DNA of 64,000 nucleotides from Methanobacteriota archaeon (GCA_963769885.1 CAVYNH010000005.1:119144-183143); one strand, 5' to 3'; positions 28,605 to 49,498 are shown, numbered from the stretch's first letter. Notes: a model not told the origin generated them from the sequence alone. Program-made: numbers and translations.

Positions 28605-30317
28605 TTGAAGCTGACCCTGAAGGTTCTCATCGGCAACCTCTTGTTCATTGCGGTCTTTTTCCTCATCATTGCGAGGATTTTTTCCGTCGTCTCTGGCGCC
28701 GTGTTCCCGGTCGATATTGTGACCTCGGATTCCATGAGTCCGTCGCTGATAACGGGGGATCTGGTCACCTGGTCGCCCGCGTCCATTCAGGACGTTAAGG
28801 TCGGGGATATCGTCGTCTATAAGAGCTGGCTGCACTGGCCTGACACGAAGTTCATCGTGCACCGCGTCATCGAGGTCCGCGAGGACTTCGGCAAGATCGC
28901 GCTGGTCACCAAGGGAGACGCGAACCGGTGGACCGACCAGGCTGGGCCGCATGCGCCCGAGCCGTACGTGACCGAGAAGAACTTCGTCGGTAAGGCGATC
29001 ATGCTCGGCCCTGTGCCCTTGAAGATCCCGTTGGTCGGCTACGTTGGCATCCTGGTCAACGAAGGTTTCCGATTGTTGACGCAGTCCTCGGCGGCGAAAG
29101 GGACCTCGACGACGATCTGGGTCTTCACGCCCCTGACCGTGTCCGTCATCCTCCTGGTCATCGCCATCTTCCTGGTCCCTGAACGCCGGAAGACCATCCA
29201 AGAGAAAATCAGGTACTACATCCTGAGTTCACGGTCCTTGAACCTGAAGAAAACCGCCGTGTTCTTCTTCCTCCTGTTCACCGCCTTCTTCTTCATCATC
29301 CATCTGTTCGCGTATGATACGGTGACGGGGGCGGTCGGCGTCGGCGAATTCGCCTCAAAGAATGGCATGGACCTTGGGGCACTGGAGCCGGGGCAGACCG
29401 GGTTCCCTCGGGAGATCTCCGTTGTCAATCCTAGCGTTTTCCCTGTCAAAGGCATTATCTTCGGGAGGCAAGGCATGGAGCCGCTCCTCAATCACGTCGT
29501 CTTCACGGTGGGAGCAGGTAAGATCAAGCCACAGAACATCTCCGCCTCCGTCCCAAACGGGACCGCGAACGGCTCGTACGTCGGCGACATCGCCATCTAC
29601 TCCTCCCCTCTCTGGCTGCTCTTCCCAGACGAGGTCCTACTCACGGTGTCGCAAGCAGACCCCAGCCTCGTGGTTATTATTCTGGATCTCATCAGTGCCG
29701 CGATCCTCACGGCGGTCACACTCCTGATCATCCTTGCCGCTGCCCTACTCGAGGAGACGGCCTACGTTCTCCAGGTCAATCTCTCCTGGCACTATGCCCC
29801 ACGGCCGATGCTGAAAACCCGATGGAGAGCGCGGATTGCCCATGCGCGCCTCCGATTTCGCCGCGGACTGGCGAGGAACGTCCTCTGGGTAAGCCAGGTA
29901 AACCTCGCGTCGCTGCAGGCGCGGCCGTTCCTGATCGGCGGCCTCATCGCCGTCCCCTTCTTCTTCCTCATGCAAAGCACGCTTACAGCTTTGGTGGTCG
30001 CCGCGGTCCTCGCCGGGCTGGTCGCCTACCTCTTTCGCTGCCGGCTGCGGGAAAAGATCGTCCTTGCGGTCGTCATGTCCCTGTGTGTCTCCCTGTGTCT
30101 GCTCATGGGCAAGATCGGCTTCGACATCCTCACCGCCTCCCGCTCGGTCATAGAGACCCTCGGGCTGGTCATGGGCGCGCTCGGGATTTATCTGCTCGTC
30201 GTCGCGTTCCTGCTCGTTCCTGTGGTCCTGACGTCGTGGGGGCTAACGCACCTCTGCCGAAATGTTAAAGAACAGCGTGACCCATTACTGGCCCTGGAGG
30301 GTGGATGCGACCTCTAA
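28605..30317 (+). CDS. signal peptidase I (S26) fused to a long multi-TM C-terminal region
   Basis: SDSMSP (Ser), GDIVVY, IVHRV (His), TKGDAN in the first ~160 aa, then ~400 extra aa. Confidence 0.82.
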   Translation: MKLTLKVLIGNLLFIAVFFLIIARIFSVVSGAVFPVDIVTSDSMSPSLITGDLVTWSPASIQDVKVGDIVVYKSWLHWPDTKFIVHRVIEVREDFGKIALVTKGDANRWTDQAGPHAPEPYVTEKNFVGKAIMLGPVPLKIPLVGYVGILVNEGFRLLTQSSAAKGTSTTIWVFTPLTVSVILLVIAIFLVPERRKTIQEKIRYYILSSRSLNLKKTAVFFFLLFTAFFFIIHLFAYDTVTGAVGVGEFASKNGMDLGALEPGQTGFPREISVVNPSVFPVKGIIFGRQGMEPLLNHVVFTVGAGKIKPQNISASVPNGTANGSYVGDIAIYSSPLWLLFPDEVLLTVSQADPSLVVIILDLISAAILTAVTLLIILAAALLEETAYVLQVNLSWHYAPRPMLKTRWRARIAHARLRFRRGLARNVLWVSQVNLASLQARPFLIGGLIAVPFFFLMQSTLTALVVAAVLAGLVAYLFRCRLREKIVLAVVMSLCVSLCLLMGKIGFDILTASRSVIETLGLVMGALGIYLLVVAFLLVPVVLTSWGLTHLCRNVKEQRDPLLALEGGCDL

Positions 30318-30338: not shown

Positions 30339-31361
30339 ATGCCTCTTTTAAAGCGAAAGACTGTCCCCGCATCGCCCGTCTCATCCGACTCGCCTGCACT
30401 CTCGAATCAGTTGTCTCGATTTCAGCGTCGAAAGCCCTCCGCGACCCCGCAGGAGCCGCAGACGCCCAACGAGACGACCTCGTCTGATGCCTACTCATTC
30501 CTTGACTCCGAGCAGCCTGACCAGAACGCCTTTGAGGACCTCGGAGACCTACCAACGACCACGGCGCCGAAGCGGCCGGCCTACTGGCAGAAGGAGATGG
30601 CCGGCAAACCCGTGTTCCTCGAAGACACCGGGGAGCGGCTCGGCGAGGTCGCGGACCCCATCCTCGACGCGGAACAGCACCTCATCGGCTACCGGATCAA
30701 GGACAACAAGTCCGACGCCGTCCTCAGATTCCCCCTCGAGCAGTTCGACGAAGACAAGAACGGCCTCATCTTCGTCCCCAGCTGGTACAGCAAAGGTGTC
30801 AAGACCGTGGAGAAGCTGGAGTTCAAAGACCGTATCACCCCGGAGCTCATGTGGCTGATCACGGACAACACCGTCCCGATGCAGGACCTGTACCGCGTCT
30901 TCGTCCGCCATGACGATACTATCACAGGGTACTTGGAGGAGGCCGGTAGCCTCCGCGAACTGCTCACCCAGCGCCTCCGGATTCTGGAAAAAGAGCGGCT
31001 GTCGCTCAAAGAAAGCCTCATGGACCTCACCGAGAAACGCCTCATCAAGGACATCGACCGCAGGGAGTTCTCCGACATCATCATCGAGCACCGCCGCAAG
31101 GTCAACGTCCTCGATAACAACATGAAGAAATGCAGCGACCTGCTCGCCCGTCTCCAAAAAACGTCCTTCGGCATGCTCAGCCTCGCACTCCACGCCGCCA
31201 CCGCACCCTCACCAGGTCCTCACACGGACCGCGACCCGACCACAGACCAGGCCTACCAAGAGAAATACAACCAGCTCAAACAACAGTACGCCAAACTGCA
31301 CGAGGGCTACGAAGAACTGAAGACCGCCGTGGAACGCCTCCTGACCAGCACCGACGTCTAA
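30339..31361 (+). CDS. PRC-barrel plus coiled-coil protein
   Basis: MAGKPVFLEDTGERLGEVAD.......IGYRI PRC pattern followed by heptad helices. Confidence 0.7.
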   Translation: MPLLKRKTVPASPVSSDSPALSNQLSRFQRRKPSATPQEPQTPNETTSSDAYSFLDSEQPDQNAFEDLGDLPTTTAPKRPAYWQKEMAGKPVFLEDTGERLGEVADPILDAEQHLIGYRIKDNKSDAVLRFPLEQFDEDKNGLIFVPSWYSKGVKTVEKLEFKDRITPELMWLITDNTVPMQDLYRVFVRHDDTITGYLEEAGSLRELLTQRLRILEKERLSLKESLMDLTEKRLIKDIDRREFSDIIIEHRRKVNVLDNNMKKCSDLLARLQKTSFGMLSLALHAATAPSPGPHTDRDPTTDQAYQEKYNQLKQQYAKLHEGYEELKTAVERLLTSTDV

Positions 31362-31454: not shown

Positions 31455-34400
31455 ATGTCGGACGATTTTCATACAGAAGCCAAGGAAAAACCGACCACCG
31501 GCCAGGACACCGCGCACTTCATCCTCAACAGCCGTGGCGAACTCCTCGACGCCAGCGACGCCTTCTGCCGCCTGGCCGGCAGACGCCGCGATGCCCTCAT
31601 CGGCACCACCCTGGAAGACGCTGGACTTCTCACCGACATCTCCGCCAAGGCGCTCCGCCGCCGCCACGTCTCTGTTCTCATCGGCAAAGCACCTCACACC
31701 TACACCCTCGAAGTCCGCGCCAAAGACGGCGGCATCTCCCTCCTCCACATCGACTCCATCCCCTACCTCAAAGACGGCAGACTCATCGGCGAGCTCGCCA
31801 CCGTCCACAGCATCACCCCCCAACCCCCATCCACCGACCAACCACTCACGACCATGACGACTGAGCCGCGCCCAGGCACCGACCCCACCGCGATCCTCCA
31901 AGACCGCCTCGAAGACCAACACCACAAACTCCACCAGACCCAACAGAAACTCCGCAAGGCACTTCTCGACCTCGAAACCAAGACCTCACACATCCAAGGG
32001 CTCCAAGACGAGCTCGACGACACCGAACAGCAGCTCCGCCAACGCCTCCACGACCTCGACGACGCCACCAAACAACTCAGACAACGCCAATTCCTCCTCG
32101 ACCAAAAAGATCAAGAACTCACCCGCCTCCGCGACGACCTCACCGCCGAGACCAGCCAACACCAAACCAAGAACATGGAACTTGAACACCTCAACGCCAG
32201 GCTTCAAGACGCCCTCACCACCGCCGAAAACCTCGGCGAAGACCTCACAGAGGCCCAGCGACTCCTCCTCCAGAAGACCCATGACGCCGACCAAAAGGCC
32301 GCCGAGATCAAAAACCTCACCGGCCTCCTCGAGGACACCCGTCAGACCCTCGCCGCCCTCCAAGCCGAGCAAGAAGGCATCATCGAAACAAACCAGGCGC
32401 TCACCAGCCAACTGACTCAAACTCGGCAGGACGCCGAGACCACCGCTGACACGCTCCGGCAGACCCAACAGCAGCTCCAAACCAAAGACCAAGACCTCGC
32501 CGCCGTCCAGGCCGCGCTCCACGCTAAAACCCAAGCACTCGCCGAGCAAACCATCCACTTCACCGAACTCCAAGAAGCCGTCCGAAGCCTCCAGGAGACC
32601 ATCGCCGAACTCCGTCAAGCCCACACCGACAACGAAACCGCCCTCGCCGGCCTCACCCAACGCCTCACCGAAAAAGACCAAGTCCTCCAACAAGCAGCCC
32701 AGGACCTCGACCGCACCCACGCCGAAACCCACACCCTCCTCGGCAAACTCGACAGCAGAGAAAAATACATCAGCTACCAAAACAACCAGCTTGACCGCTA
32801 CGTCCACCAACAAAACATACTCACACAACAACTCAACGACCTCACTGCAGCCCTAGAAAAACAGACCGCGGACCACCACGCCACTGTCCTCGCCCTCGAC
32901 CACAGCCACGATGAAACCGATCTTCGCACCGCCGAGATCCGCCGACTGTCCCGCCTCCTCGCCGACGCCCGACGCCACGCCGACGCCATCACCATCGATC
33001 TCGCCGACACCAAGACCCACGCCCTCGAAACCACGGCACAGCTCCAAGACCGACTCACCGAACTCCACGCCCTCCAAACACAGCACCACGACCAGGAGGA
33101 CGCCATCACCCGCCTCCGAAGTCAGATCACCGAACGGAACACCATCATCCAACAACTCACCGACCAGGTTGAAAACCTTCACCAGGCCGCGGCAGCCGCC
33201 GCCCACGACCACGACAGCCTCGCCACCGCCCTCACCGACACGAAAGACGAGACCAACCGCCTCCAGGACGCCCTCACCCAAAAAGAAGGCGACCTCCGAG
33301 ACAAAGACGCTGAAATCACCGACCTGCGGACAGCGCTGCGGACCGCAGAACACCACCTCAAGACCATTACCCAGACCGCCACCTGCCTTGAACAAGAACT
33401 CCAGAAAAAAGACGCAGTCCTCGAACAAAAAACCGACCTCATCAACACCCTCCAATCCGACCTCGAAGACCAACACCGAGACCTCCAAGAACACCTTCGC
33501 CATGCAACCCACCTCCACACTGAGTTCACCGATACCCAACACCTCCTCGCCGACCTCCAAAAAGAGATAGCCGAAACCACCGCCGTCAGCGCACTCCTCC
33601 AAGAGCAACTCACCGCCACAACTGAGGACCGTGACCACCACGCCCAACTCCTCACTCAGACTACCCAAGACCTCCAAACCCGAACCCACCTCCTCGACAC
33701 ACAGACTGAGGAACTCACCCGCCTCAAGGCCGACCTCGCCAAATACACCCAAGACCTCGACCACAGCCATCAACGCATCATCGAACTCGAAACCGAGCTT
33801 GAAGAAAAAACGACGGCCCTCGACGACACCACCCGACTCCTCACCCAAGCCACACAAGAAGCCCAGGCACGCACCCAAGAGGTCAGCGAACTCACCGCCG
33901 GCCTCAACGCCCGCAACCGCGAACTCGACCAACAACTCCAACTCATCGCCACCTTCAAACAAGAATCATTCGATAACCACCTCAGCCTCACCGGACTCAA
34001 CGAAGAACTCGCCGCCCGCCAGCACGAGCTCCAAACACAGACCGCAGCCCTCACCCAACTCCAAGAAACACTCACCGCACTCCAGAAAGACAACGCAGAC
34101 CACACCGCCCTCATCGCCATCCTCAAAACCGAACAAGCCACCAAACAAGCCCTCCTCGAACAACAGACCGAGGCCCTCACCAGACAACGCCACGAGCTCA
34201 CCCACCTCCACGACAACCTCGACGCTCAAAAACACCTCCGAGAAGAAACAGACCAAAGACTCCACGAGACCCTCACCCAACTCCAAACCCACAAAGACCA
34301 CATCTCCAAACTCTCCACTGAGCTTCTCGCCAAAAACCAACAACTCCAAACCATCGAACAGACCCTCCAGCAGCACCAACACGACCTCCAAGAAAAAACA

Positions 34401-37400
34401 CAGCTCATCCAACACACCCACCACCAACTCGCAGACCTCGAAAAAGAACTCCACAGCCACCACCAAGAAATCAACGACCTCCACCACTCCCTTGACGAAC
34501 GCAACCAAATCATCGCCGACCTCACCGGCCAACTCACCGACACCCAAAGCAGCCTGCTCCAAGAGGCCAAGGCCGCCGACACTCTCAACGACAACCTCAC
34601 CAACACCAGAACCCTCCTCACCCAGACCCAAGCAGAGCTGGAAACTAGCCACCACCAGCTTCACCAGGCCAAGAGCGACTGTGAACGCCTCACCGAACAG
34701 CACACCGCCCTCACCGCCGAACTCCAACGAATCACCACAGAGCTCGCCGCGCAACACCTGGCATCCCAAAAACAAAAAACCGAACTCAAAGACCTTCAAA
34801 CCGAGATCCACACCCGAGACTTCCTGATCTCCGACCTCACTCATCAACTCACCAAAGAACAGACCACAATCACCCAAAAAACCCAAGAAAACCAGACGTT
34901 AACCGAGGAGCTCGCCCGCACATCCGAACTCCTCCTCCAAGGTCAAGAATCCCTCACCGCCAAACAAAATGAACTAACAGAGGCCACGCAGACACTCGAC
35001 GAGCTCACCACCACCATCCAATCACTTAAAGAAGAGATAGAAACCCGGGACATCATCATCAGCGACCTCACCCAACAGGCCAGTGAAGAACAATCAAAAC
35101 TCGTCACCACCGCAACCCAGATCGAAGACCTCACCAGAGAACTTACCGAAACCCAAGACAGGCTACACGGCAGCCAAACCGCAGGCCTTGCACAGGAAGC
35201 CGAGCTCACCCGACTTAAGGAAGAACTCCACGACCGCCTCCAGGACCTCGCCTACCGCAACAACGATCTCAACGACCATAAGGCTCGAATCAACCAGCTC
35301 AGCACACAAATCGAGACCCAAGCCCAGGCCCTCCAGCAGGATCAAGCAGAACTCGCACGCCTGAACCAACTCAACCGCCAACAAGCTCTCGACCTCAAAC
35401 AGGCGCGCGAGGAGACTGAAAAACAATGGATGGAATTAGTCCTCAAGAACATCGACATCCAGGATAAAAGCGAACTTATCACCGAACTCAACGAAAAAAT
35501 CACCCAAGACCAACAGATCATCACTATAGCAGAGAGCGACTTCCAGACCAAGACCACGCATCTCTCAAGCCAAATCCAGGACCTCCAGAGTACACTGCAA
35601 AACACCCGGACCATGCTCGAACAATCCACCGACGAAATCCAAAGCCTCAACCAAGAGATCATCGGAAAGGACCGGCTCCTCCAAGACCTCAGCCGACAAC
35701 TCAGCGACGAACAGACCTCCCTCATCGAGACTGTCTCAAAAAAACACCAGCTCGAATCGGAAGTCGAGGTACAACGACAGCACAATGAGACGCTGCAGGG
35801 AACGCTCCGTGACAAAGAACAACACCTCCACCAAATCGAGGAGGCTCTCAAGTCCAGCGAGCTTCAACTCACGGACCTACAACGGGAACTCACGGGTAAA
35901 ACTCGAGACCTCGAGATCGCCACAACCGAGTTGACCGCCAGGGAGGACCATCTCGAGAAACTGCAAGCCTCCCATACTTCACTTCTCCAAGATGACGAGA
36001 GACTGAAAAAGCAACTCGAGGACCTCACACTGGAGAAGCAGAACCTGCGATCATTGCTCGACAGCATCGAACAAGGAAGCGCCTCCTCCATCATCATGAC
36101 CGATGCCAAAGGCATCATCACCTCGTGGAACCCGCGCGCCGAGCAGCTGTTCAACATGCCCGTCACCTCCGCAATCGGACGACAGCTTACAGACCTTCCA
36201 TTCCTCAAAGACGCCCTCTCAAATACCGTGAACATCCTCACAAAGACCTCTGAACATTCGATCATCATCAAGAACCAGCGGAACGAGGAGCTCCTCACGG
36301 ATATCTCACGGATTCCTCTGCTCAACGACGTCGGAGAAGGTTATGGGTCTCTCATCATCATCGATGATGTTACACCGATGGCTGGGTTGCATGCAGAACT
36401 CTGTAAAAACAAGGCGGATCTTGAGGCGCTCAGCAATCGCTATCAACAATCCTTCAGAAAAATGGCGATTGCCGAGAAGGAGCTACAGGAGAACGAAACC
36501 GAGTTGCGTGTTAAAAAGCAGGCTCTTGCTGAACAAGCCCAGGAGATTTCGGGGCTTCAGAAGGAACTCGAGCGTCATTTTGAGGTGGTGAAAACCAAGA
36601 ATTCGCAGTTGGAGCAAGTGGTTAGAACCCTTCAAGAACGAGACTCGGAACTCGATGAGTTGCGTCAGAAGACCACCAATGGCCAAGACGAGCTCCTGCA
36701 TGCCAAGAACCTTATTGCGAATCTGGAAAACGAGCATCATCGAACGGTCGATGAGCTGCATGATGTTTCGACAAAGTTGAAGGAAGCACAAAAGGAAATC
36801 ATAAGATCCGAGGATCTATGCCAGAGGTTCCAGGCGCACCTCCTCAAGCAACAATGCGAGGTGAGCCAAAAGGAGCTTGAGATTAAGACCCTGGGGGATA
36901 GCGCTGAGAATCGGACGAGGGAACTGGAGATTGTCACGAAGCGGCTTGAGGACAGCACGCTGCAGCTGTCGGCCTCTACAATCAGGATTGAGAGAGCGGA
37001 GAAGGATTTGAAGAAACGAGAGGAGGAAGCATTGCTTCTCCGCCAGCAGGTAAAAGAAAGGCAGACCGTACTTCTCAGGGTCACTGATGAGAGAGACAAC
37101 ATCGTGCAACAATGTGAAACCCTGAAGACCGACCTTGTTTCTGCTCGGAAGGACATGGAGGAGCTCTCGAGTGAATTAAAGGCGAATAAGGCATCGGTGC
37201 TTTGGTTCAAGACGGAACTTGAGGGGACGAAGGAAACCTTGCGGCTCAAGGAGAACGATGTGCATGTGAGACTTGCAGAAGCGGAGGATCTGCGAAAACA
37301 AATCGGTGAGCTTAAGATTGCTCTTCTTGAAAGGAACCATGACGTAGAACACGTACGGGAGGAGGTCGAGGGCCGGCAACAGCAGATAGGCATCCAGGAG

Positions 37401-38432
37401 CAGATTGTGCAGGAGTTAAAGAAACAGCTTGCGGCACGGCAGGTCCAGGTGAAGCAACGAGAGGATGAGCTGTGGCAAAAGACCCAGCTCATCGAGAATT
37501 TAAAAGGCGAGCTTGAACGTTATCAGCAGCGAATCTCGGACCTTGAGAGTTCCTCGCTGGAGCAGGAAAAGGAGGCGGCGCAACGCAGCTCGGTGCCGGC
37601 GCTGAAGACCCAGGAGATCAGCGTTTTACAGGAAGAACTGGAGAAAATCACCGAGAAGCTCCGGGAAAGGGACGGGGAAATGCTCGAGGTTCGGAAACAG
37701 TTGGAGGCTGCTCGCTTGGAGGCAAACAAGAGGAAACTGGAGGTTGAGGATCTCAGCCTCAAGTGCCGTCTAATTCAAAACGAGATTCCTTCATCTGTGA
37801 TCATGGTGGATGAGAAGAATCAGATCGCAGCGTGGAACAAGAGGGCGGAGATGCTGTTGGGTGTGGAGGCGAAGAAGGCGATTGGTTGCGACTTGTTCAA
37901 TTTGTCGTTCATGGAGCGGGAGCGGCTGCGGGAGGGCTACGCCCAGAGTGTCTCGAACCGAAGGGATGTGACAATCAAGGCGATCATCTTTCCCTCGTCG
38001 AATGAGGAGAAGGCCTTGGTGGATGTCACCATCCATCCGGTATTTGGTGAGGCAGGAAATCCTATGGGTGCACTATTGGTCATGGATGATGTGACGAGCC
38101 GGGTGGCGGTCGAGGCGGAGCTTCATCGGAAGGAGGCTGAGGTCGGTGAGTTGAATCAGCGGTTGGCGGATTCGTTTAAGAAGAATGTGTTGTCGGCGTT
38201 GGAGGGGGATGCGTCGAAGCGTCAGGCGGTGGGTGAGGTGGCGCGGCCGGCGTTCGAGGATCGGACGGTGATTGCGGGGGATTTGTCGGTGGTGGCGTCG
38301 CGGCGGCCGGCTGAGGAGGGGCCGGTGGATGAAGCGTGGCAGGAGCGTGTGCGGGTGTGCGGGGAGATCGAGCGTCGGTTGGATGAGGCGGGGGTGGTGA
38401 AGGTGAAGAAGGAAAAGGAGGAGGGGAAGTAG
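31455..38432 (+). CDS. giant (2325 aa) coiled-coil protein with three PAS domains
   Basis: PAS-like segments at the N-terminus, ~36040-36375 (IIMTDAKGIITSWNPRAEQLF...DDVT) and ~37770-38096 (IMVDEKNQIAAWNKRAEMLLG...DDVT), separated by long heptad repeats. Confidence 0.85.
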   Translation: MSDDFHTEAKEKPTTGQDTAHFILNSRGELLDASDAFCRLAGRRRDALIGTTLEDAGLLTDISAKALRRRHVSVLIGKAPHTYTLEVRAKDGGISLLHIDSIPYLKDGRLIGELATVHSITPQPPSTDQPLTTMTTEPRPGTDPTAILQDRLEDQHHKLHQTQQKLRKALLDLETKTSHIQGLQDELDDTEQQLRQRLHDLDDATKQLRQRQFLLDQKDQELTRLRDDLTAETSQHQTKNMELEHLNARLQDALTTAENLGEDLTEAQRLLLQKTHDADQKAAEIKNLTGLLEDTRQTLAALQAEQEGIIETNQALTSQLTQTRQDAETTADTLRQTQQQLQTKDQDLAAVQAALHAKTQALAEQTIHFTELQEAVRSLQETIAELRQAHTDNETALAGLTQRLTEKDQVLQQAAQDLDRTHAETHTLLGKLDSREKYISYQNNQLDRYVHQQNILTQQLNDLTAALEKQTADHHATVLALDHSHDETDLRTAEIRRLSRLLADARRHADAITIDLADTKTHALETTAQLQDRLTELHALQTQHHDQEDAITRLRSQITERNTIIQQLTDQVENLHQAAAAAAHDHDSLATALTDTKDETNRLQDALTQKEGDLRDKDAEITDLRTALRTAEHHLKTITQTATCLEQELQKKDAVLEQKTDLINTLQSDLEDQHRDLQEHLRHATHLHTEFTDTQHLLADLQKEIAETTAVSALLQEQLTATTEDRDHHAQLLTQTTQDLQTRTHLLDTQTEELTRLKADLAKYTQDLDHSHQRIIELETELEEKTTALDDTTRLLTQATQEAQARTQEVSELTAGLNARNRELDQQLQLIATFKQESFDNHLSLTGLNEELAARQHELQTQTAALTQLQETLTALQKDNADHTALIAILKTEQATKQALLEQQTEALTRQRHELTHLHDNLDAQKHLREETDQRLHETLTQLQTHKDHISKLSTELLAKNQQLQTIEQTLQQHQHDLQEKTQLIQHTHHQLADLEKELHSHHQEINDLHHSLDERNQIIADLTGQLTDTQSSLLQEAKAADTLNDNLTNTRTLLTQTQAELETSHHQLHQAKSDCERLTEQHTALTAELQRITTELAAQHLASQKQKTELKDLQTEIHTRDFLISDLTHQLTKEQTTITQKTQENQTLTEELARTSELLLQGQESLTAKQNELTEATQTLDELTTTIQSLKEEIETRDIIISDLTQQASEEQSKLVTTATQIEDLTRELTETQDRLHGSQTAGLAQEAELTRLKEELHDRLQDLAYRNNDLNDHKARINQLSTQIETQAQALQQDQAELARLNQLNRQQALDLKQAREETEKQWMELVLKNIDIQDKSELITELNEKITQDQQIITIAESDFQTKTTHLSSQIQDLQSTLQNTRTMLEQSTDEIQSLNQEIIGKDRLLQDLSRQLSDEQTSLIETVSKKHQLESEVEVQRQHNETLQGTLRDKEQHLHQIEEALKSSELQLTDLQRELTGKTRDLEIATTELTAREDHLEKLQASHTSLLQDDERLKKQLEDLTLEKQNLRSLLDSIEQGSASSIIMTDAKGIITSWNPRAEQLFNMPVTSAIGRQLTDLPFLKDALSNTVNILTKTSEHSIIIKNQRNEELLTDISRIPLLNDVGEGYGSLIIIDDVTPMAGLHAELCKNKADLEALSNRYQQSFRKMAIAEKELQENETELRVKKQALAEQAQEISGLQKELERHFEVVKTKNSQLEQVVRTLQERDSELDELRQKTTNGQDELLHAKNLIANLENEHHRTVDELHDVSTKLKEAQKEIIRSEDLCQRFQAHLLKQQCEVSQKELEIKTLGDSAENRTRELEIVTKRLEDSTLQLSASTIRIERAEKDLKKREEEALLLRQQVKERQTVLLRVTDERDNIVQQCETLKTDLVSARKDMEELSSELKANKASVLWFKTELEGTKETLRLKENDVHVRLAEAEDLRKQIGELKIALLERNHDVEHVREEVEGRQQQIGIQEQIVQELKKQLAARQVQVKQREDELWQKTQLIENLKGELERYQQRISDLESSSLEQEKEAAQRSSVPALKTQEISVLQEELEKITEKLRERDGEMLEVRKQLEAARLEANKRKLEVEDLSLKCRLIQNEIPSSVIMVDEKNQIAAWNKRAEMLLGVEAKKAIGCDLFNLSFMERERLREGYAQSVSNRRDVTIKAIIFPSSNEEKALVDVTIHPVFGEAGNPMGALLVMDDVTSRVAVEAELHRKEAEVGELNQRLADSFKKNVLSALEGDASKRQAVGEVARPAFEDRTVIAGDLSVVASRRPAEEGPVDEAWQERVRVCGEIERRLDEAGVVKVKKEKEEGK

Positions 38433-39278: not shown

Positions 39279-40136
39279 ATGGAAAAACGGTATATGGAAA
39301 GGCTGGTAGGCAGGTACTGTAAAATCGTGACCAAGGAACCTGGCGAAGACCGCGCCAGTGTCGTCACAGGTGTTCTCGAAGATGTTGACTACAAAGACGG
39401 GTTCCTCATAATCGATTCCTCCCAGGGCCTCGGTTGCCTGCGCATGGACACGGTGATTGCCATTAAACCAGGAACCAAGCGCCAACCCGAGAGGAAGCCC
39501 CTGAAAAAAAATGCCCAGGCCGAGGTCGGTATCGGCACCCTCATTGTGTTCATCGCATTAGTCCTCGTCGCAGCGATAGCGGCAAGCGTCATCATGCAGA
39601 CTGCTGAGACCCTGCAGCAGCGGGCCTATGCAGTCGGTAAACAAACCATCCGTGATGTATCCAGCGGTATTCGAATTATTGGTGTCACTGGATACACAGA
39701 CGTCAACAAGACCAAGGTTGATTACCTTGCCCTCGCAATCACTCCCCGCGCTGGATCGTACGATATCGATCTGAACAAGACTCTCCTCTATCTCCAACTC
39801 GACAATTTTACTATCCTAAGCCTGAACCCGAATGCCAAAGCAGGCACGGTCGCGCAAGGCGGGGTGTTCTCGACCCTCAACCTCTCCCAACTGAACGCCA
39901 CGAACTATGGGCTCATCTCTATTCATGACTCCGATAATTCAATTATGAATAGCAACGGTATTAGCACTTCGGATCAGGCAATGCTCATTGTGAACCTCAC
40001 GGCGGCCCTCCCGATGACTCAGGGTCTGAGAGCAGGGGACACCCTGGAAGGTAAAATCGTCCCCGAAGTGGGGGTTAGCGGTATCTTTGTAGTTAACGCG
40101 CCCAATGCCTTTAAATACCGCGTGGTCGAGGTTTAA
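39279..40136 (+). CDS. flaB: archaellin with N-terminal Sm/Hfq-like domain (copy 1)
   Basis: 81-aa leader, then QA|EVGIGTLIVFIALVLVAAIAASV and PRAGS..IDL. Confidence 0.88.
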   Translation: MEKRYMERLVGRYCKIVTKEPGEDRASVVTGVLEDVDYKDGFLIIDSSQGLGCLRMDTVIAIKPGTKRQPERKPLKKNAQAEVGIGTLIVFIALVLVAAIAASVIMQTAETLQQRAYAVGKQTIRDVSSGIRIIGVTGYTDVNKTKVDYLALAITPRAGSYDIDLNKTLLYLQLDNFTILSLNPNAKAGTVAQGGVFSTLNLSQLNATNYGLISIHDSDNSIMNSNGISTSDQAMLIVNLTAALPMTQGLRAGDTLEGKIVPEVGVSGIFVVNAPNAFKYRVVEV

Positions 40137-40155
40137 GGAAGAACTCATACGACAA

Positions 40156-40192
40156 GAGGCGGAATTTCGCCTCCCCTTCTCTTTCTTTTTTT
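40156..40192 (+). terminator. hairpin plus pyrimidine/T tract after archaellin copy 1
   Basis: GAGGCG...CGCCTC followed by CCCTTCTCTTTCTTTTTTT. Confidence 0.5.
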
Positions 40193-40324
40193 CTCCAGAA
40201 AAGCATCCTCTCAATTTGACAGAATGCCGTTTTGCTGTTCAACCCGAGCATCTATAAATACATTCACCAGCGAACCATACTTGCTACATGCTGGCAAACA
40301 GCATGGGAACGAAGGTGAACGAAA

Positions 40325-41179
40325 ATGGAACGCAAGAACATGGAAAGGCTCATCGGAAACTATTGCAAAATCGTAACTAAAGAACCCGGAGACAACCGCG
40401 CCAGCGTCATCACCGGCTATGTCGAGGATGTCGACTACAAAAACGGGTTTATCCTCGTCAACTCAGCCCAAGGACTCGGGTGTCTACGCATCAACACCGT
40501 CGTCGCTATAAAACCTGGGACGATGCGACCGGATAAAAAGAAAATTTTCATCAATTCACAGGCCGAGGTCGGCATCGGCACCCTGATTGTCTTCATCGCC
40601 TTAGTCCTAGTCGCAGCCATTGCTGCGAGCGTTATAATGCAGACTGCAGAAACCCTTCAACAACGGGCGTACGCGGTCGGAAAACAAACTATCCGGGACG
40701 TCTCTAGCGGAATCCGAATCATCGGCGTCACCGGATACACGGACACTAACAAGACCAAGATCGATTACCTTGCCATCGCCATTACTCCCCGCGCCGGATC
40801 CTACGATATCGATCTGAATAAGACCCTCCTCTACCTCCAACTCGACAACTTCACCATCCTTAGCTTGAACCCGAATGCCAAAGCAAGCACGGTCGCGCAA
40901 AGCGGGGTGTTCTCGACCCTGAACCTCTCCTTGCTGAACTCGACGAACTTCGGGGTGATTGCCATCCATGACTCAGATCAATCCATCAACAAAAGCAACG
41001 GCATAAGCACCTCGGATCAGGCAATGCTCATTGTGAACCTCACGGCGGCTCTCCCGATGACCCAGGGACTGAGAGCAGGGGAAATCCTGGAGGGGAAGAT
41101 TGTCCCCGAAGTCGGCGTCAGCGGCGTCTTCGTGCTCAATGCACCCAATGCATTCAAATACCGCGTTCAAGAATTATAA
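40325..41179 (+). CDS. flaB: archaellin with N-terminal Sm/Hfq-like domain (copy 2)
   Basis: Close paralog of 39279-40136 with an 80-aa leader and the same cleavage motif. Confidence 0.88.
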   Translation: MERKNMERLIGNYCKIVTKEPGDNRASVITGYVEDVDYKNGFILVNSAQGLGCLRINTVVAIKPGTMRPDKKKIFINSQAEVGIGTLIVFIALVLVAAIAASVIMQTAETLQQRAYAVGKQTIRDVSSGIRIIGVTGYTDTNKTKIDYLAIAITPRAGSYDIDLNKTLLYLQLDNFTILSLNPNAKASTVAQSGVFSTLNLSLLNSTNFGVIAIHDSDQSINKSNGISTSDQAMLIVNLTAALPMTQGLRAGEILEGKIVPEVGVSGVFVLNAPNAFKYRVQEL

Positions 41180-41223: not shown

Positions 41224-42546
41224 TTACGACGTTACTGATTCTACAATAAGCATTTCCGCTTTTTCCCCATTAAAACGAGTAGATTTAATCCGCACATTGA
41301 TAGGAATATGATTGTTTGTTTTTGTGGCAAGAATCGTCGAATACCCATCTATCTTGTCACCCTTGAGACGATCCAGATAATACTTCTCTATTTTACCTAA
41401 GCCGTCGAGTGCGATGAAATCGTACAGACTGTGTTCAAGAAGCTCGTCTCCCGCGTAACCGATGAGTGAATCAAAGCCCGAATTGGTTTGTTTAATGATT
41501 CCTCGTTGCACGACAACGGCGCACTCCTTGATTTCACCCAGCGGTTGAAGATCGTCGATCTTATCAGTCTCGTTCGTCTGACCGAGAAGAACCGAATTGA
41601 TATTTTCGCGAGAAGCTTCCGATTGGGTGCGGCGTCGCTCGATCTCTTCCTCAACTGACTTTAATTTTTCTTTCCATACACAGAATTCATCTAATCGAAG
41701 TTCTAACTGCTGTGCCTTGCTGAGAAGGTACTCCTCTTTTTGATTGAGTTCGAGCTTCCGTTGGTCCAACTGTGCAGTGAAGTCAACGAGTTGTTTTTTC
41801 TTGGAGTGAATTCCAAATAGATTTCGTAGAGAAAATGCGCCTGGTTTCAAGAGCCGCTTTTGTTGCGTTGGAACTATCCGAAGCTGCGTGATGCCCTTAG
41901 AGATACTCTGCAGCTCGGCGGATAGCTGCGCAAGCATGGTGTAGGTAGAATTCGTTGTGGTAGTGAGAGTTTGCAGGAGATCGCCAAGCGAGGAGATCTT
42001 CTCACTGAGGTCATGGAGGTCCAATAGAATTGCTTCTAACGTCTTGGCTGATCCCTGGAGTTCGTTGGGCTGCTTTAGAATCTGATCCGGAGCGAAAATC
42101 GGATCGCCCTGAACGTGCTCAACCAGCTCGGAGTGAGCTTGGGTTTCAGAGGCATGTCCAGGTTGGGGAGTTTCAGAGGAGGACGATGGTTTCTGAGCCT
42201 CGCCTATAAGACAAACGCTTAGGAACCCATCAGCTGCGTCAGGGACTACGAACCCATTCCACACGACAGGGATTTGGCGGTTTGATTTCGTCTGAAGCGG
42301 TAGGGTAAACGAAGTAATATGTAATAACTCCTGCATATGAGAAAAGATTGTGGCCCAGTCTTCGCGAACATCTGCGGGGAGGATCTGGGTGAAGTCATGG
42401 TTTATGACGTCAATCCGTGAAAAACCTGTGAGATGTTCACACTCAGGGTTGAATTGAATCACGGATCCGTCTCGGGCGAGGCTGAGAATTAACTTTGCTT
42501 CCTCGTACGAACTCTGAGGTTGCCCTGCGATTCGGTCGGACACCAT
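41224..42546 (-). CDS. PAS/coiled-coil/PAS protein
   Basis: N-terminal LARDGSVIQFNPECEHLTGFS and C-terminal VVQRGIIKQTNSGFDSLIGY PAS patterns flank a coiled coil. Confidence 0.8.
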   Translation of the reverse strand: MVSDRIAGQPQSSYEEAKLILSLARDGSVIQFNPECEHLTGFSRIDVINHDFTQILPADVREDWATIFSHMQELLHITSFTLPLQTKSNRQIPVVWNGFVVPDAADGFLSVCLIGEAQKPSSSSETPQPGHASETQAHSELVEHVQGDPIFAPDQILKQPNELQGSAKTLEAILLDLHDLSEKISSLGDLLQTLTTTTNSTYTMLAQLSAELQSISKGITQLRIVPTQQKRLLKPGAFSLRNLFGIHSKKKQLVDFTAQLDQRKLELNQKEEYLLSKAQQLELRLDEFCVWKEKLKSVEEEIERRRTQSEASRENINSVLLGQTNETDKIDDLQPLGEIKECAVVVQRGIIKQTNSGFDSLIGYAGDELLEHSLYDFIALDGLGKIEKYYLDRLKGDKIDGYSTILATKTNNHIPINVRIKSTRFNGEKAEMLIVESVTS

Positions 42547-42813
42547 CTCTTCATCCAGAATGACCCAAGGTCTTCGCGGTACTATCTCGTACGGATTTTA
42601 AAAGGTTTTGTCTATAACTAAATTGCGCCTATTCAGTTTTATTCATGGGCGCTGCTTTTTGCAGACCATAGAAGTTCATCTACATTTTTCAAATATATCG
42701 AGAGACATAAAAGTATAAATATACGATTTCGGTTGATATGAGTGGGATCACCCAACAGGTTGGAATATGGAGGGGTACGCATAAAGTTAAAACTTGGGAA
42801 AGATGAGCCAGTG

Positions 42814-43641
42814 ATGTCTCAAGATACGACGACATCTGGTAAACCTCCCAAACCGCCCAGCCTCCCAAAACAAGAAGGAGAAAAACCGGAGAACGTCGAT
42901 AACCTCAGGAAAATTATCAAGTTTGATACCGCCCAGCCCGCCTCCGAGACTCAAAAAAAATCAGAACCCCCTATCCCCAAAGAAACACAAATAAAGGAAC
43001 AGCCGTCCCCACAAAAACCGGATTCCGCAGCGGTTCTCTCCGAGAGGGCACCTTCAGCTGAAGCTTCGCACGAAGATCTCGAGCAACGACGGGCCATGCT
43101 TCAGAATATGAAGGACTTTGATTTTCAGATTAAAAAAAACAAAGAAGATATCGTCAAAGTCATCGATAAAGTAGATGGCCTTTCCAAAGATCTCGACGAT
43201 TTGGTGAGCCTCTACGAAATCGTTTCTGAACAGATGAACCCGTTCGTAGGACTATCGAAGGTTACCAAAAAACGCCTCGACGCCCTGGAAAACATCACGG
43301 CAGATGTCGACACCTTAAAAACTAAGATTGGGGAAATTGAATCTCTCGTAGAAAACTGCGTATCAACTTCGGCCACGCTTCCAAAGGTAGAGCCGCTCAA
43401 GCCTCTAGAGAAGAAAACAGCCACCACCGCGGGGGAGCAACAGATGACCCAATTCCCGAATATGACGCCCGCAACCCCAAGCATCAATACCACCATACAA
43501 GCCACAAACTCAAATCAACCCCTGGCGACGTACCTTCCGGATGCAGAATTGGACAACCTATTGTCAAAAGCCCTGGAATCCTATTTATTCGAACAAAAAA
43601 TCGATACCCTGATAGATGAATTCTTCCGAAATATAAAATAA
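42814..43641 (+). CDS. flaC: archaellum accessory protein ArlC/FlaC-like
   Basis: Coiled coil ending LVSLYEIVSEQMNPFVG; first gene of the arl core; start uncertain. Confidence 0.78.
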   Translation: MSQDTTTSGKPPKPPSLPKQEGEKPENVDNLRKIIKFDTAQPASETQKKSEPPIPKETQIKEQPSPQKPDSAAVLSERAPSAEASHEDLEQRRAMLQNMKDFDFQIKKNKEDIVKVIDKVDGLSKDLDDLVSLYEIVSEQMNPFVGLSKVTKKRLDALENITADVDTLKTKIGEIESLVENCVSTSATLPKVEPLKPLEKKTATTAGEQQMTQFPNMTPATPSINTTIQATNSNQPLATYLPDAELDNLLSKALESYLFEQKIDTLIDEFFRNIK

Positions 43642-43676
43642 GAAATACCTTATACAGAGTGAGGAGAGAGCCAGGA

Positions 43677-44492
43677 ATGGTTGAAGCAACAGAAAACCAA
43701 AACGCTGAGCAGCCTCTCGACGAGACCGCACTTCAAACAGAGCTTGCTGTTCTCGTCGAACGCAATCAGCTCCCTCAACGAATCGCCCAGAGGATTAGCG
43801 AGAAGTTAAAGAAGAACCATCTCGCCCTCACCCGTGAACAACTCTCCCTTCTCGTCGAACGCATCCAAACCGCGCTCCGCTCTCTTCAACAACCTCATGA
43901 CGTCGAAGACGAAAAAAACCAAGTTAAGACCAAGCCAAACCAGATCCCTGCCGCTGAAGACATGAAACATCTCTACGACGAGGTCGCCGACCTCAAAGAC
44001 CGCCTCCAAGTCATTGAACTCAACTCCCTCGAAGGAATCCGAGGGACAGCCGGACGACTCGTGAAAACACGGGAGATTCAGAATCAATCCCACATCGAAG
44101 TAGGGCAGGACGCCCTCCAGTCTCTTGAGGCAATTCCCAACGACCCAGAAAGCATCGTCATCGTCATGAAATGGCTCTCCTTCATGGTCGAACGAATCGG
44201 GAAGCACGGCCTCCCTGACGTCCTCGGGTACTACGTAGACATTGGATGGATCTCCGACGACGTTCGCCTTGACTTGATAAACTATTCCAAGGGCATTATC
44301 GAGGACCTGAGCCACTCAGACAACCAGAGGGAGACCGCTTATCTTCCGACGAAAGACCACCTCCAGTCGCTCCTCTTCATCCAGAAACTCAAAGGAATTC
44401 ATCTCGACGAACGATTCCTCAACAGGATTGACAGAGAAATGGAGAAGATGACCAAGAGCCTGGAAAACACGCCAACCAAACCCCCACTTTAA
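43677..44492 (+). CDS. flaD: archaellum protein ArlD/E
   Basis: WLSFMVER.G...LGYYVDIGWIS...DHLQSLLFIQKL. Confidence 0.88.
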   Translation: MVEATENQNAEQPLDETALQTELAVLVERNQLPQRIAQRISEKLKKNHLALTREQLSLLVERIQTALRSLQQPHDVEDEKNQVKTKPNQIPAAEDMKHLYDEVADLKDRLQVIELNSLEGIRGTAGRLVKTREIQNQSHIEVGQDALQSLEAIPNDPESIVIVMKWLSFMVERIGKHGLPDVLGYYVDIGWISDDVRLDLINYSKGIIEDLSHSDNQRETAYLPTKDHLQSLLFIQKLKGIHLDERFLNRIDREMEKMTKSLENTPTKPPL

Positions 44493-44581
44493 GGGAATAA
44501 CTTTATCTATTTTATTTTGTATTACACCTACGGAAAAGGGAATCAAGGGTTGCACACTCTACAATTAGGAGGGTAAAGGAC

Positions 44582-45007
44582 ATGGGATTCTCACTGATAG
44601 CATCAGCCGTGGTTCTCAGCATTGCCATCGCGATGGCTATCGAGATCTTCACGGGAGACATCTTTCCGACAATTGATCGCATCAACACAGCCTATGAAGG
44701 CCTTAAAGGACGAATCGATACCCAGGCTCATGCTAATATCAATATCACCTCGATTTCCCGCGTATCCTATGGGTTGAACTACAACTATACTATCACAGTT
44801 CACAATACTGGTAGTGTGACGCTGCCGACAGCGACTGCAACAATCCTGTTCAACGGAACCAAAGAACCGTTCAACGCCTCTGCACCTTACCTCTATCCTG
44901 ACGCAACCGTGACATTCTCTATTATCGGAATACCAGATATGAGTGGGAAACGAGTCAAAGTGATAACAGAAAACGCAATCGCCGACTATCGCACATTTAC
45001 TCCTTGA
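44582..45007 (+). CDS. flaF: archaellum stator protein ArlF
   Basis: MGFS plus TM helix, V.NTGS..L, LYP, RVKVITEN; gene order. Confidence 0.8.
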   Translation: MGFSLIASAVVLSIAIAMAIEIFTGDIFPTIDRINTAYEGLKGRIDTQAHANINITSISRVSYGLNYNYTITVHNTGSVTLPTATATILFNGTKEPFNASAPYLYPDATVTFSIIGIPDMSGKRVKVITENAIADYRTFTP

Positions 45008-45019
45008 GAGGAAAGAACC

Positions 45020-45460
45020 ATGGGATTTAGCCTAACAGGAGCACATGTCATCTTTTTCATCGCTGCTGTTATCGCCGCAGGCGCTGTTTCAGGAATTCTT
45101 ATCGCAGTAACCACAAACATCAGCTCAAGCCTCTCCGAGCGAGGCAGCCGCGTTGTCGAACAGCTAGACACGGAGTTCGCTGTAATAAACGATCCAAACA
45201 CCATCCCTATCCAGGGTGACTACTACGTATTCTATCTTAAAAATATCGGGGCAAAAAAATTTGAGACCACAAACGACACCTTCACGGTGTTCATCGACGG
45301 CAATATCCTCACAAAACAGGACTTCTATTTCACTAATTCGACCCTCTCCCCAGACGCCGTCACGGAACTCTACGCACACACTACACTCTCTACCGGAGAT
45401 CACACCCTTCGTATCGTCGGCCTCCTCGCCACCGAGGATGAATTCCACTTTCAAATCTGA
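45020..45460 (+). CDS. flaG: archaellum stator protein ArlG
   Basis: HVIFFIAAVIAAG, INDP, YLKNIG, VFIDG; gene order. Confidence 0.85.
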   Translation: MGFSLTGAHVIFFIAAVIAAGAVSGILIAVTTNISSSLSERGSRVVEQLDTEFAVINDPNTIPIQGDYYVFYLKNIGAKKFETTNDTFTVFIDGNILTKQDFYFTNSTLSPDAVTELYAHTTLSTGDHTLRIVGLLATEDEFHFQI

Positions 45461-45471
45461 GATGAACCACC

Positions 45472-46185
45472 ATGCAAGGCTTTAAATCAATCATCCTTGA
45501 ACGAAAAGGAGAAAACGACGGGTTTGCAGACCGATTCGGAAAGATCATCCCAGACGGATCACTCATCTTCATCGAAGGAAAAGAAGGCACTGGGAAAAGC
45601 ATCTTCTGCCAGCGATTCTGCTTCAGCCTCCTGAAAAACGAAAACACCTGTTCCTACGTCTCCACCCAATTCACGATCAAAAGCTTCCTCCGCCAAACCG
45701 CATCCGTTGGCTACGATGTCCGAAAATATCTCATGACCGGGAAATTCTTCTTCATCTCCACCGAAGTCACCCTCGCTGAAACCCTCCCACGACAGACATT
45801 CCTGGAAGGACTAATCACCTGCCGCAAGCTTTTCGAGCCAGACATCATCTTCATCGATTCCCTCTCCACCCTCCTCAAAGACAGCCTTAACTCCCAAAAT
45901 CTCACGGAATTGACCAGTTTCTTCAATCGTCTTACCGGCTCAGGGAAAATCATCTTTTGCACTGCAAACCCGCTCGAATGGACTGAAGAAATTCACAACA
46001 CCTTCCGGATGATTACCAACATTCATTTTCGAACATCTCGAGAAACTGCTCCAGGGATCGGGATTGTATACAACATCTATTTAGAGAAGTTCAACGGGGC
46101 TCGCTTTAAGTACGAGCCAGTAACTCGATTCTCCGTCCGCCCGGGAGTCGGACTGACCATTGAATCCAGTGGCGTCGCATTCTAG
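45472..46185 (+). CDS. flaH: archaellum KaiC-like ATP-binding protein ArlH
   Basis: G..GTGKS..CQRF, IDSLS, F.VRPGVGL.IE. Confidence 0.9.
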   Translation: MQGFKSIILERKGENDGFADRFGKIIPDGSLIFIEGKEGTGKSIFCQRFCFSLLKNENTCSYVSTQFTIKSFLRQTASVGYDVRKYLMTGKFFFISTEVTLAETLPRQTFLEGLITCRKLFEPDIIFIDSLSTLLKDSLNSQNLTELTSFFNRLTGSGKIIFCTANPLEWTEEIHNTFRMITNIHFRTSRETAPGIGIVYNIYLEKFNGARFKYEPVTRFSVRPGVGLTIESSGVAF

Positions 46186-46211
46186 CATGGGAGGGGAAGA
46201 CCATCACCAAG

Positions 46212-47831: not shown

Positions 47832-47857
47832 GAGGTGAAAACACGGACAAGGGAACA

Positions 47858-49489: not shown

Positions 49490-49498
49490 GTTAGACGA

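Follow-up and report, generated by a model that had tools for sequence, protein, structure and literature searches.

A giant PAS-coil-PAS-coil-PAS protein encoded beside the archaellum genes of uncultured Thermoplasmata

A stretch of 64,000 nucleotides (nt) from a Methanobacteriota archaeon (GCA_963769885.1, CAVYNH010000005.1:119144-183143; the whole stretch is hereafter the window) encodes, next to an archaellum operon, a giant protein of 2325 amino acids (aa). Sequence and structural analyses support the view that this protein, hereafter the giant, is a cytoplasmic PAS-coil-PAS-coil-PAS rod with no output domain. It might be a parallel two-stranded rod that serves as an accessory tether or scaffold, joining an assembly of the neighbouring CdvA-like protein to the archaellum machinery, with its in-line PAS domains acting as regulators. 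This functional reading is the one preferred here, and it is held tentatively, at a little less than an even chance. The parts of the giant gene, in window coordinates, are listed below.

31455..38432, plus strand: giant PAS-coil-PAS-coil-PAS gene; 2325 aa, 265 kDa, isoelectric point 5.1
31506..31817, plus strand: PAS1 (aa 18-121); a family-specific PAS type and the marker of the giant family
31818..31883, plus strand: flexible linker rich in Pro and Thr (aa 122-143); predicted local distance difference test (pLDDT) below 50 at aa 127-140 in the AlphaFold2 (AF2) model
31884..36059, plus strand: coil 1 (about aa 144-1535); heptad repeat that is nearly perfect, with Q, T, H, L and D abundant
36060..36374, plus strand: PAS2 (aa 1536-1640); in-line between helices, terminating in DDVT
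36375..37766, plus strand: helix after PAS2, then coil 2 (about aa 1641-2104); rich in E, K and R, with the heptad register unbroken
37767..38114, plus strand: PAS3 (aa 2105-2220); paralogue of PAS2, terminating in DDVT
38115..38336, plus strand: helix after PAS3, paired in the two-copy model as far as about aa 2244, followed by a variable, low-confidence segment
38337..38429, plus strand: conserved C-terminal peptide (aa 2295-2325), sequence WQERVRVCGEIERRLDEAGVVKVKKEKEEGK

The gene is one intact open frame, with an ATG at 31455, a stop codon at 38430-38432, and a Shine-Dalgarno-like GGTGA 8-9 nt upstream of the ATG. An earlier reading of the window, made from the sequence only (hereafter the sequence-only reading), had described a 2325-aa PAS-coil-PAS-coil-PAS protein with no output domain, and this description was borne out by the Pfam, motif, and hydropathy scans. 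The Pfam scan of the giant yielded PAS domains only; neither a receiver domain nor MCPsignal (PF00015) was found by Pfam. The histidine-kinase hallmarks HATPase_c and DHp are absent by Pfam and motif scans, and they are likewise absent from the orthologues. The motif scan of the protein was negative for Walker A, H-box, and GGDEF, and hydropathy over 19-residue windows peaks at 1.05, so there is no transmembrane segment or signal peptide. The sequence-only reading had also listed the transmembrane segment, the kinase H-box, GGDEF, and the SMC Walker motif as missing, in agreement with these scans. No homology to any named Arl protein was found in Pfam or NCBIfam, and no catalytic output domain was detected in the giant by Pfam, NCBIfam, or motif searches.

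The three PAS regions were scanned separately against the Pfam gathering scores. Each passes singly, as expected from the three PAS-like domains that had been claimed: PAS1 (aa 18-121) matches PAS_4 with 27.0 bits (cut-off 23.1), PAS2 (about aa 1535-1640) matches PAS with 36.0 bits (cut-off 22.6), and PAS3 (about aa 2105-2220) matches PAS with 42.3 bits (cut-off 22.6). The AF2 models show the PAS fold, with five antiparallel beta-strands and helices at its flanks, at pLDDT values of about 85-95 across the PAS cores, and Foldseek matched them to PAS/LOV structures with E-values of 1e-9 to 1e-5. PAS1 resembles PAS folds generally, such as Aer, hERG, and FixL; the invariant residues of its subtype are R70, S73, L75, G77, K78, and Y83. 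Internal protein repeats of the giant are weak, and the sole clear internal similarity is that between PAS2 and PAS3, which share about 30% identity, each including the helix that follows. The D-I-T junction is the PAS-to-helix connection of signalling PAS domains, and the DDVT ends of PAS2 and PAS3 correspond to it. The orthologue alignments show no conserved Cys or His in the three PAS domains of the giant. The LOV flavin-adduct Cys (NCRFLQ) and the heme-ligating F-alpha His were both looked for, and no Cys or His column is invariant in the PAS1 or PAS3 alignments; His71 of PAS1 varies among H, N, Q, R, and Y. The description of the giant as sensor-bearing is thus sound for the PAS folds themselves, but the internal PAS domains are missing from some full-length orthologues, and there is no conserved LOV or heme Cys/His.

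Between the PAS domains, the giant has two nearly unbroken heptad stretches, measured at about 1390 and 455 residues by periodicity and register tracking; about 1400 and 470 aa had been estimated in the sequence-only reading. At aa 113-1510 and aa 1625-2070, the power of the 3.5-residue hydrophobic periodicity exceeds background more than tenfold. No proline is present in any 112-residue window with its start between aa 169 and 1401. In coil 1, the register runs through 1216 consecutive residues and breaks only once, at aa 1361, compared with about 32 register breaks in the shuffled control of coil 1; coil 2 has zero breaks. The a and d positions are mostly Leu and Ile. The periodicity, the lack of proline, and the unbroken register of 1216 aa together argue for a continuous coiled coil. 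The rise of a coiled coil is 0.1485 nm per residue, which gives computed spans of about 206 nm for coil 1 (about 1390 aa x 0.1485 nm) and about 68 nm for coil 2, close to the 200 nm previously suggested for the first coil. The whole molecule would be roughly 0.27-0.3 micrometre long. To our knowledge, its repeat is among the longest nearly uninterrupted heptad repeats of prokaryotes.

The two coils differ in composition. Coil 1 has a net charge of about -111, contains 76 His residues, and is unusually rich in Gln, Thr, and His, whereas coil 2 has a conventional composition rich in E, K, and R. The DNA of coil 1 (window 32001-36000) is A+C-rich on the coding strand, with a GC skew of about -0.4 and an AT skew of about +0.52. 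This skew is due to the codons for Gln, Thr, and His; His reaches up to 13% in aa 901-1000. The orthologue coils are mostly Glu/Lys, and the Q/T-rich style was seen in only two others (G014 and G015). The b, c, and f positions of the coil appear to be free to drift in composition. Coil 1 also contains the motif R[DN]xxIxDLxxQL five times, at aa 561, 1016, 1121, 1198, and 1405 (window 33135-35750). A longer form, (E/D)I..L..EI..R[DN]..I.DL..QL.(D/E)EQ..L, recurs in most orthologues with 1-8 copies, and the motif spacings are mostly multiples of 7, such as 105, 77, 126, and 42. These motifs may mark ancient repeat units, each about 77-126 aa long, or sites of binding at regular intervals.

The two ends of the giant were modelled separately. 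The AF2 model of the N-terminal 280 aa (pLDDT 83.5) consists of PAS1, a disordered linker at aa 127-140, and a continuous helix. PAS1 is not joined in-line to the rod, because the linker (aa 122-143) has low pLDDT. The model of the C-terminal 280 aa (pLDDT 78) has PAS3 between a long helix and a second one, after which come a low-confidence stretch and, on the tail peptide, a short terminal helix; its best PDB matches are coiled-coil-linked LOV/PAS kinases (4gcz), NifL, and short LOV proteins. The two-copy model of the same 280 aa scored 0.64, against 0.01 for the best control. Among proteins of solved structure, 20 of 30 one-chain pairs and 1 of 23 single chains attained that mark. Between runs, at least 98% of contacts are in common, and the pLDDT of the partner is at least 73. 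The contacts run from residue i to residue i with an a/d pattern before and after PAS3, and the modelled dimer is therefore parallel and in-register. PAS-coiled-coil dimers such as 4gcz have already been solved, so that the performance of the model may partly reflect memory of them. The model thus predicts that the C-terminal module pairs as a parallel in-register homodimer.

The C-terminal peptide is a constant feature of the family. In its consensus, W-K-x-K-L-K-I-x-D-E-I-D-K-x-L is followed, after 5-6 residues, by L-K-T-K-K and an acidic tail; the residues E, I, L, and KK do not vary between genera. The peptide is kept even in split and PAS-less variants of the giant, and the orthologues without internal PAS domains end in a degenerate form of it. 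It is a candidate docking or output element.

The giant gene is carried by uncultured Thermoplasmata metagenome-assembled genomes (MAGs), several of them named for sediment sites such as Guaymas and Lac Pavin. PAS1 orthologues were identified in 40 of 108 genomes of one GTDB family, representing 25 genera with one copy per genome, and in none of 89 genomes from ten other families of the class. The PAS1 profile scores are bimodal, with orthologues at or above 100 bits and other PAS domains at or below 80. MAG contigs often end inside the giant gene, so its presence is undercounted. The giant seems to be missing from one genome (G001) of the source genome's genus, but a contig there ends within the archaellin gene. 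More than 15 independent assemblies contain the giant unbroken and with its domains in the conserved order, and the large open frames of the relatives match all three of its PAS regions. Pfam analysis of orthologues of 2235, 2435, and 1422 aa gave PAS-coil-PAS-coil-PAS with no further domain. Long DNA repeats are absent from the giant gene, and there is no recent tandem duplication in the DNA, so collapse or chimera is unlikely. Misassembly had been named in the sequence-only reading as a concern, besides a hidden output domain. Because independent Thermoplasmata MAGs carry the same architecture, the giant is not regarded as an assembly artefact, and a misassembled frame is unlikely. In the locus of the closest relative (L026:10960-17524), where synteny is complete from ProRS to the archaellins, the giant lies in three frame pieces of 297, 186, and 1757 aa. 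This locus contains a run of 20 N, and the frame breaks probably result from a scaffolding or sequencing error rather than from a pseudogene.

Searches of larger collections gave little further information. The exact sequence of the giant is absent from a collection of 5.8 billion proteins. A whole-length search of that set gave a single weak PAS-kinase match, the candidates being dominated by coiled-coil words and uninformative. The PAS1 profile searched against 1.84 billion representatives was swamped by multi-PAS proteins, and the true members were mainly short N-terminal fragments. An Atlas feature search with the giant returned generic bacterial PAS clusters only.

The genes around the giant in the window are as follows.

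28605..30317, plus strand: S26-like signal-peptidase-related protein, 570 aa; first gene of a conserved trio
30339..31361, plus strand: CdvA-like protein (PRC barrel and helical domain), 340 aa
38442..39053, minus strand: archaellin-like gene, 203 aa; convergent with the giant, 9 nt between the stop codons, an arrangement that is conserved
39279..41179, plus strand: two archaellins with long N-terminal extensions ('Sm-archaellins')
41224..42546, minus strand: PAS-coil-PAS protein, 440 aa; divergent from arlC
42742..51274, plus strand: archaellum motor operon with arlC, arlD/E, arlF-like, arlG-like, arlH, two arlI, and arlJ

The sequence-only reading had placed the giant next to the archaellum. 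A complete operon lies downstream, and the relationship goes beyond adjacency, as the gene order is conserved across about 25 genera. The conserved order is S26-like, CdvA-like, giant, convergent archaellin-like, Sm-archaellins, 440-aa PAS-coil protein, arlC, and arlD/E. From the S26-like gene to arlD/E, this order is identical in every relative with a contig long enough. The block from the S26-like gene to arlC is kept across the 25 or so genera, including loci without the ProRS-SpoU-M50 genes that lie upstream of it in the window, and the giant thus holds a conserved position in the arl clusters of many genera. A full-text search of the published literature, including a 2026 survey of archaeal type-IV-filament systems, found no PAS/coiled-coil giant described in archaellum clusters. 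ArlC is present in 82 of the 108 genomes, which indicates that the archaellum is near-universal in the family and that the giant is accessory to it. Within the operon, two tandem full-length ArlI-type ATPases (539 and 543 aa; window 46212-49489) precede the single ArlJ.

The 440-aa neighbour was also compared with the giant. Its PAS domains have no special paralogy with PAS1 or PAS3, as all pairs score at the generic PAS level. It contains an invariant central motif, W(K/R)EKL..LE.EIE.R (aa 288-305), which resembles the tail peptide of the giant (38337-38390). The hhalign comparison of the two is weak (P = 0.011, probability 4%). A loose pattern covering both, written after seeing them, matched only those two open reading frames (ORFs) among 10,087 in the genome. 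Homology between the tail peptide and the 440-aa motif is a lead only.

The CdvA-like protein is encoded directly upstream of PAS1 wherever both coordinates were listed or the locus was fetched, and it is 47-61% identical across genera. Strong CdvA-like matches among the 108 genomes of the family fall in PAS1-positive genomes in 31 of 31 cases. Its profile aligns with the solved CdvA structure (9s9g) at E = 8.5e-7 over 195 residues, spanning the PRC barrel and the helical domain, and the PRC-barrel model was matched by 6 of 8 members. The profile alignment argues that the protein is a true distant relative of CdvA. CdvA proteins bind membrane and polymerise. The source genome has two FtsZ genes; ESCRT-III was not detected in it, by a search whose control showed low sensitivity. 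Rather than a core protein of division, the CdvA-like protein would seem to be a partner dedicated to the giant.

Natural variants of the giant were compared to define its constant and variable parts. The related loci were collected with the CdvA-like alignment, and the architectures of the orthologues, whose open frames range from 976 to 2823 aa, were assigned with local hidden Markov models. The PAS1-coil-PAS-coil-PAS form was found in ten loci. The PAS1-coil-PAS form was found in two complete loci and in the first piece of a split gene (G002), and PAS1-coil without an internal PAS in five complete ORFs, four of them in one genus (one of these four split in two). In three loci of one genus (L043, L044, and L052), PAS1 is followed by about 2000 aa of coil and a degenerate tail, with zero internal PAS domains. 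These architectures show that PAS1, the long rod, and the tail peptide are constant, while the internal PAS domains may be present or absent. Among genera, the length of coil 1 lies between about 310 and about 1920 aa. Coil 2 measures exactly 408 aa in four loci; elsewhere its length is 314, 434, 461, or about 640 aa. Within genera the giants are similar in length, such as 2444 and 2428 aa or 1425 and 1470 aa. This similarity, together with the 408-aa coil 2 of four loci, suggests some constraint on length. The previous suggestion of a molecular ruler fits poorly, as coil 1 varies six-fold while the motor genes stay conserved.

Two of the variants separate the parts of the giant from one another. 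In the single-contig genome G003, the giant is split into a PAS1-coil part of 694 aa and a PAS-coil-PAS-tail part of about 1030 aa, at two loci about 450 kb apart:

L015:5892-9710
L016:7816-9897

Only the PAS-coil-PAS-tail half adjoins an archaellin gene, and the queries used detected neither ArlC nor the CdvA-like gene in this genome. In G018 (L023:5589-8456), a 956-aa PAS-less coil with the same tail peptide occupies the slot of the giant beside the archaellin-like gene; the S26-like gene, the CdvA-like gene, and PAS1 are missing, while other species of the same genus carry the full version. In G013 (L021:2681-2899), the match to the long-leader archaellin is confined to its leader domain, about the first 70 residues, and lies beside a 1313-aa PAS1-coil gene. 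This match may be a stand-alone leader-domain gene or a fragment.

Under the tether reading, the N-terminal end of the giant would work with the CdvA-like protein, and PAS1 would be a head on its flexible linker. The tail peptide would dock on a cytoplasmic part of the archaellum, either the ArlC/D/E ring or the 440-aa PAS-coil protein. In that case the rod might brace motors or set their position against a support inside the cell, and the relatives of these cells lack an S-layer. PAS2 and PAS3, which appear to join their helices through D-V-T junctions as signalling PAS dimers do, could be in-line regulatory nodes that modulate the conformation or availability of the tail on an intracellular cue. 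This reading fits two earlier observations: ArlC/D/E have no membrane anchor, and a cytoplasmic anchor or brace has been proposed for them (PMC8978795); the Thermoplasmatales have no S-layer, the presumed support of the stators, and stator anchoring in them is an open question (PMC12448462). In a bolder version, the giant and its CdvA-like partner would be a structural element of a previously unidentified cytoplasmic apparatus that anchors or organises archaella, with the PAS modules attaching, releasing, or repositioning motors according to internal state without a Che system. This version is speculative, and its chance of being correct is small.

Several points weigh against a tether. The charge of coil 1, about -111 with few Lys or Arg, is unusual in a stable dimer. 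Eight PAS1-positive genomes have no CdvA-like gene, including the single-contig G003. The giant is accessory, with ArlC in 82 and PAS1 in only 40 of the 108 genomes, though contig breaks undercount the giant. Synteny inside one family can be inherited rather than functional. Both docking steps are suggested by gene order and motifs. Imaging of the only Thermoplasmatales species so examined, a distant relative, revealed no polar cap (PMC12448462).

The giant might instead be a sensory transducer, in which the PAS domains sense redox, metabolite, or energy state and signal directly to ArlC/D/E together with the 440-aa protein, giving taxis without Che. In other archaea, ArlC and ArlD/E connect the motor to the Che system. 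No MCPsignal, CheF, or CheW/CheA match was found in the source genome, which is 92% complete and in 7 contigs, although arlC and arlD/E are present, and 36 of the 40 PAS1-positive genomes have no CheW match. The in-line position of PAS2 and PAS3, their D-V-T junctions, and their dimeric flanking helices are also those of signalling PAS modules, and two PAS-coil proteins are conserved within the archaellum cluster. However, CheW occurs in 17 of the 108 genomes, and 4-5 of these 17 also carry the giant. An anticorrelation between Che and the giant was therefore rejected as a rule, and the giant is not a simple substitute for Che. A conformational signal along a 200 nm coil is implausible, PAS1 sits on a disordered linker, no cofactor-ligating Cys or His is conserved, and the orthologues at L043, L044, and L052 retain PAS1 and a long rod while lacking every internal PAS. 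A transducer would also leave a very large and variable rod without a reason. On balance direct signalling is unlikely, though it retains appreciable weight.

A general role in the cytoskeleton, cell shape, or division together with the CdvA-like protein was also considered, with the adjacency to the archaellum being inherited gene order only. Long coiled-coil proteins commonly build bacterial cytoskeletons, which counts for such a role. The tightest genetic link of the giant is to the CdvA-like gene, and roughly half of the archaellated genomes have no giant. Roles in cell division are documented for PRC-barrel and CdvA proteins (10.1101/2023.03.28.534520; PMC5840170). Yet in the split G003 and the truncated G018, the tail-bearing part stays by the archaellin genes and not by a CdvA-like gene, and the block of the trio plus arl genes persists where the upstream context changes. 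The giant and the CdvA-like protein occur in no more than 31-40 of 108 genomes, which speaks against a core role in division, and division in the source genome is probably served by the two FtsZ genes. We consider a general cytoskeletal role improbable. An SMC/Rad50-like chromosome organiser, or a misassembled or decaying ORF, is effectively refuted. The NCBIfam SMC, Rad50, and ASRP models do align to the giant, and many MAG contigs break within the orthologues; but the alignments cover the coils only and are far below the cut-offs (SMC_prok_B, 183 bits against 567). The giant has no Walker A motif, ABC ATPase head, hinge, or zinc hook, and no proline or glycine break in the coil. Its intact state in more than 15 independent assemblies and the lack of long DNA repeats speak against an artefact.

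How the motor is braced with an anchor-less ArlC/D/E ring, and what the cytoplasmic organising structures consist of, are open questions. The giant family offers concrete and testable proteins for them: a lineage-specific rod with two distinct ends, a dedicated CdvA-like partner, and a short tail peptide. A conserved scaffold protein of the archaellum cluster is the kind of candidate sought for structures of the polar-cap type. If the anchoring apparatus proved true, the problem of the polar cap and stator support would have been solved in another way in the Thermoplasmata without S-layers. The conserved C-terminal peptide and the CdvA-like partner appear to be the best clues to the roles of the two ends. 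The natural length variants of coil 1, from about 310 to about 1920 residues, form a ready series for the question of whether rod length matters.

The 340-aa neighbour matches crenarchaeal CdvA (PDB 9s9g) across the PRC barrel and helical domain; however, it is tied to the giant and not to cdvB/C, and division here is probably FtsZ-based. Crescentin, Scy/FilP, and the arms of SMC/Rad50 share with the giant very long heptad rods and weak coil-only matches (Rod_CreS, 18.9 bits against a Pfam cut-off of 100). Those proteins have no PAS domains, whereas the giant has no ATPase heads, hinge, or intermediate-filament-like segmentation. The motors of euryarchaeal archaella have been proposed to be anchored and organised by the polar cap, a probably proteinaceous structure in the cytoplasm for which the papers cited name no protein (PMC8978795, PMC5517150). 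The polar cap differs in being a sheet or cone in the Thermococcales and haloarchaea, groups without the giant family. The PAS/coiled-coil modules of sensor kinases (YF1, PDB 4gcz; the NifL PAS) are similar in the in-line placement of PAS2 and PAS3, the D-(I/V)-T junction, and, in the model, the parallel dimer helices. The giant differs from them in having no DHp/H-box, HATPase, or other effector, and its linking helices are hundreds to more than 1000 residues long, compared with 20-40 residues in the kinases.

A parallel in domain organisation is provided by FrzS and AglZ of Myxococcus xanthus, which combine an output-less N-terminal domain of signalling type with a long coiled coil and no enzyme domain (PMC9811614, PMC1974792). 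FrzS consists of a degenerate receiver and a coiled coil, and it is a polar beacon or scaffold for type IV pili (PMC9811614, PMC1974792). It works for a type-IV-filament machine, and the archaellum belongs to the same superfamily. FrzS is bacterial, is several-fold shorter, and has one sensor domain, a pseudo-receiver rather than a PAS, against the three of the giant; no sequence homology between the two was detected, and the giant has no receiver domain. FrzS might be the closest functional analogue of the giant, with a resemblance that would lie in the way of working rather than in family membership.

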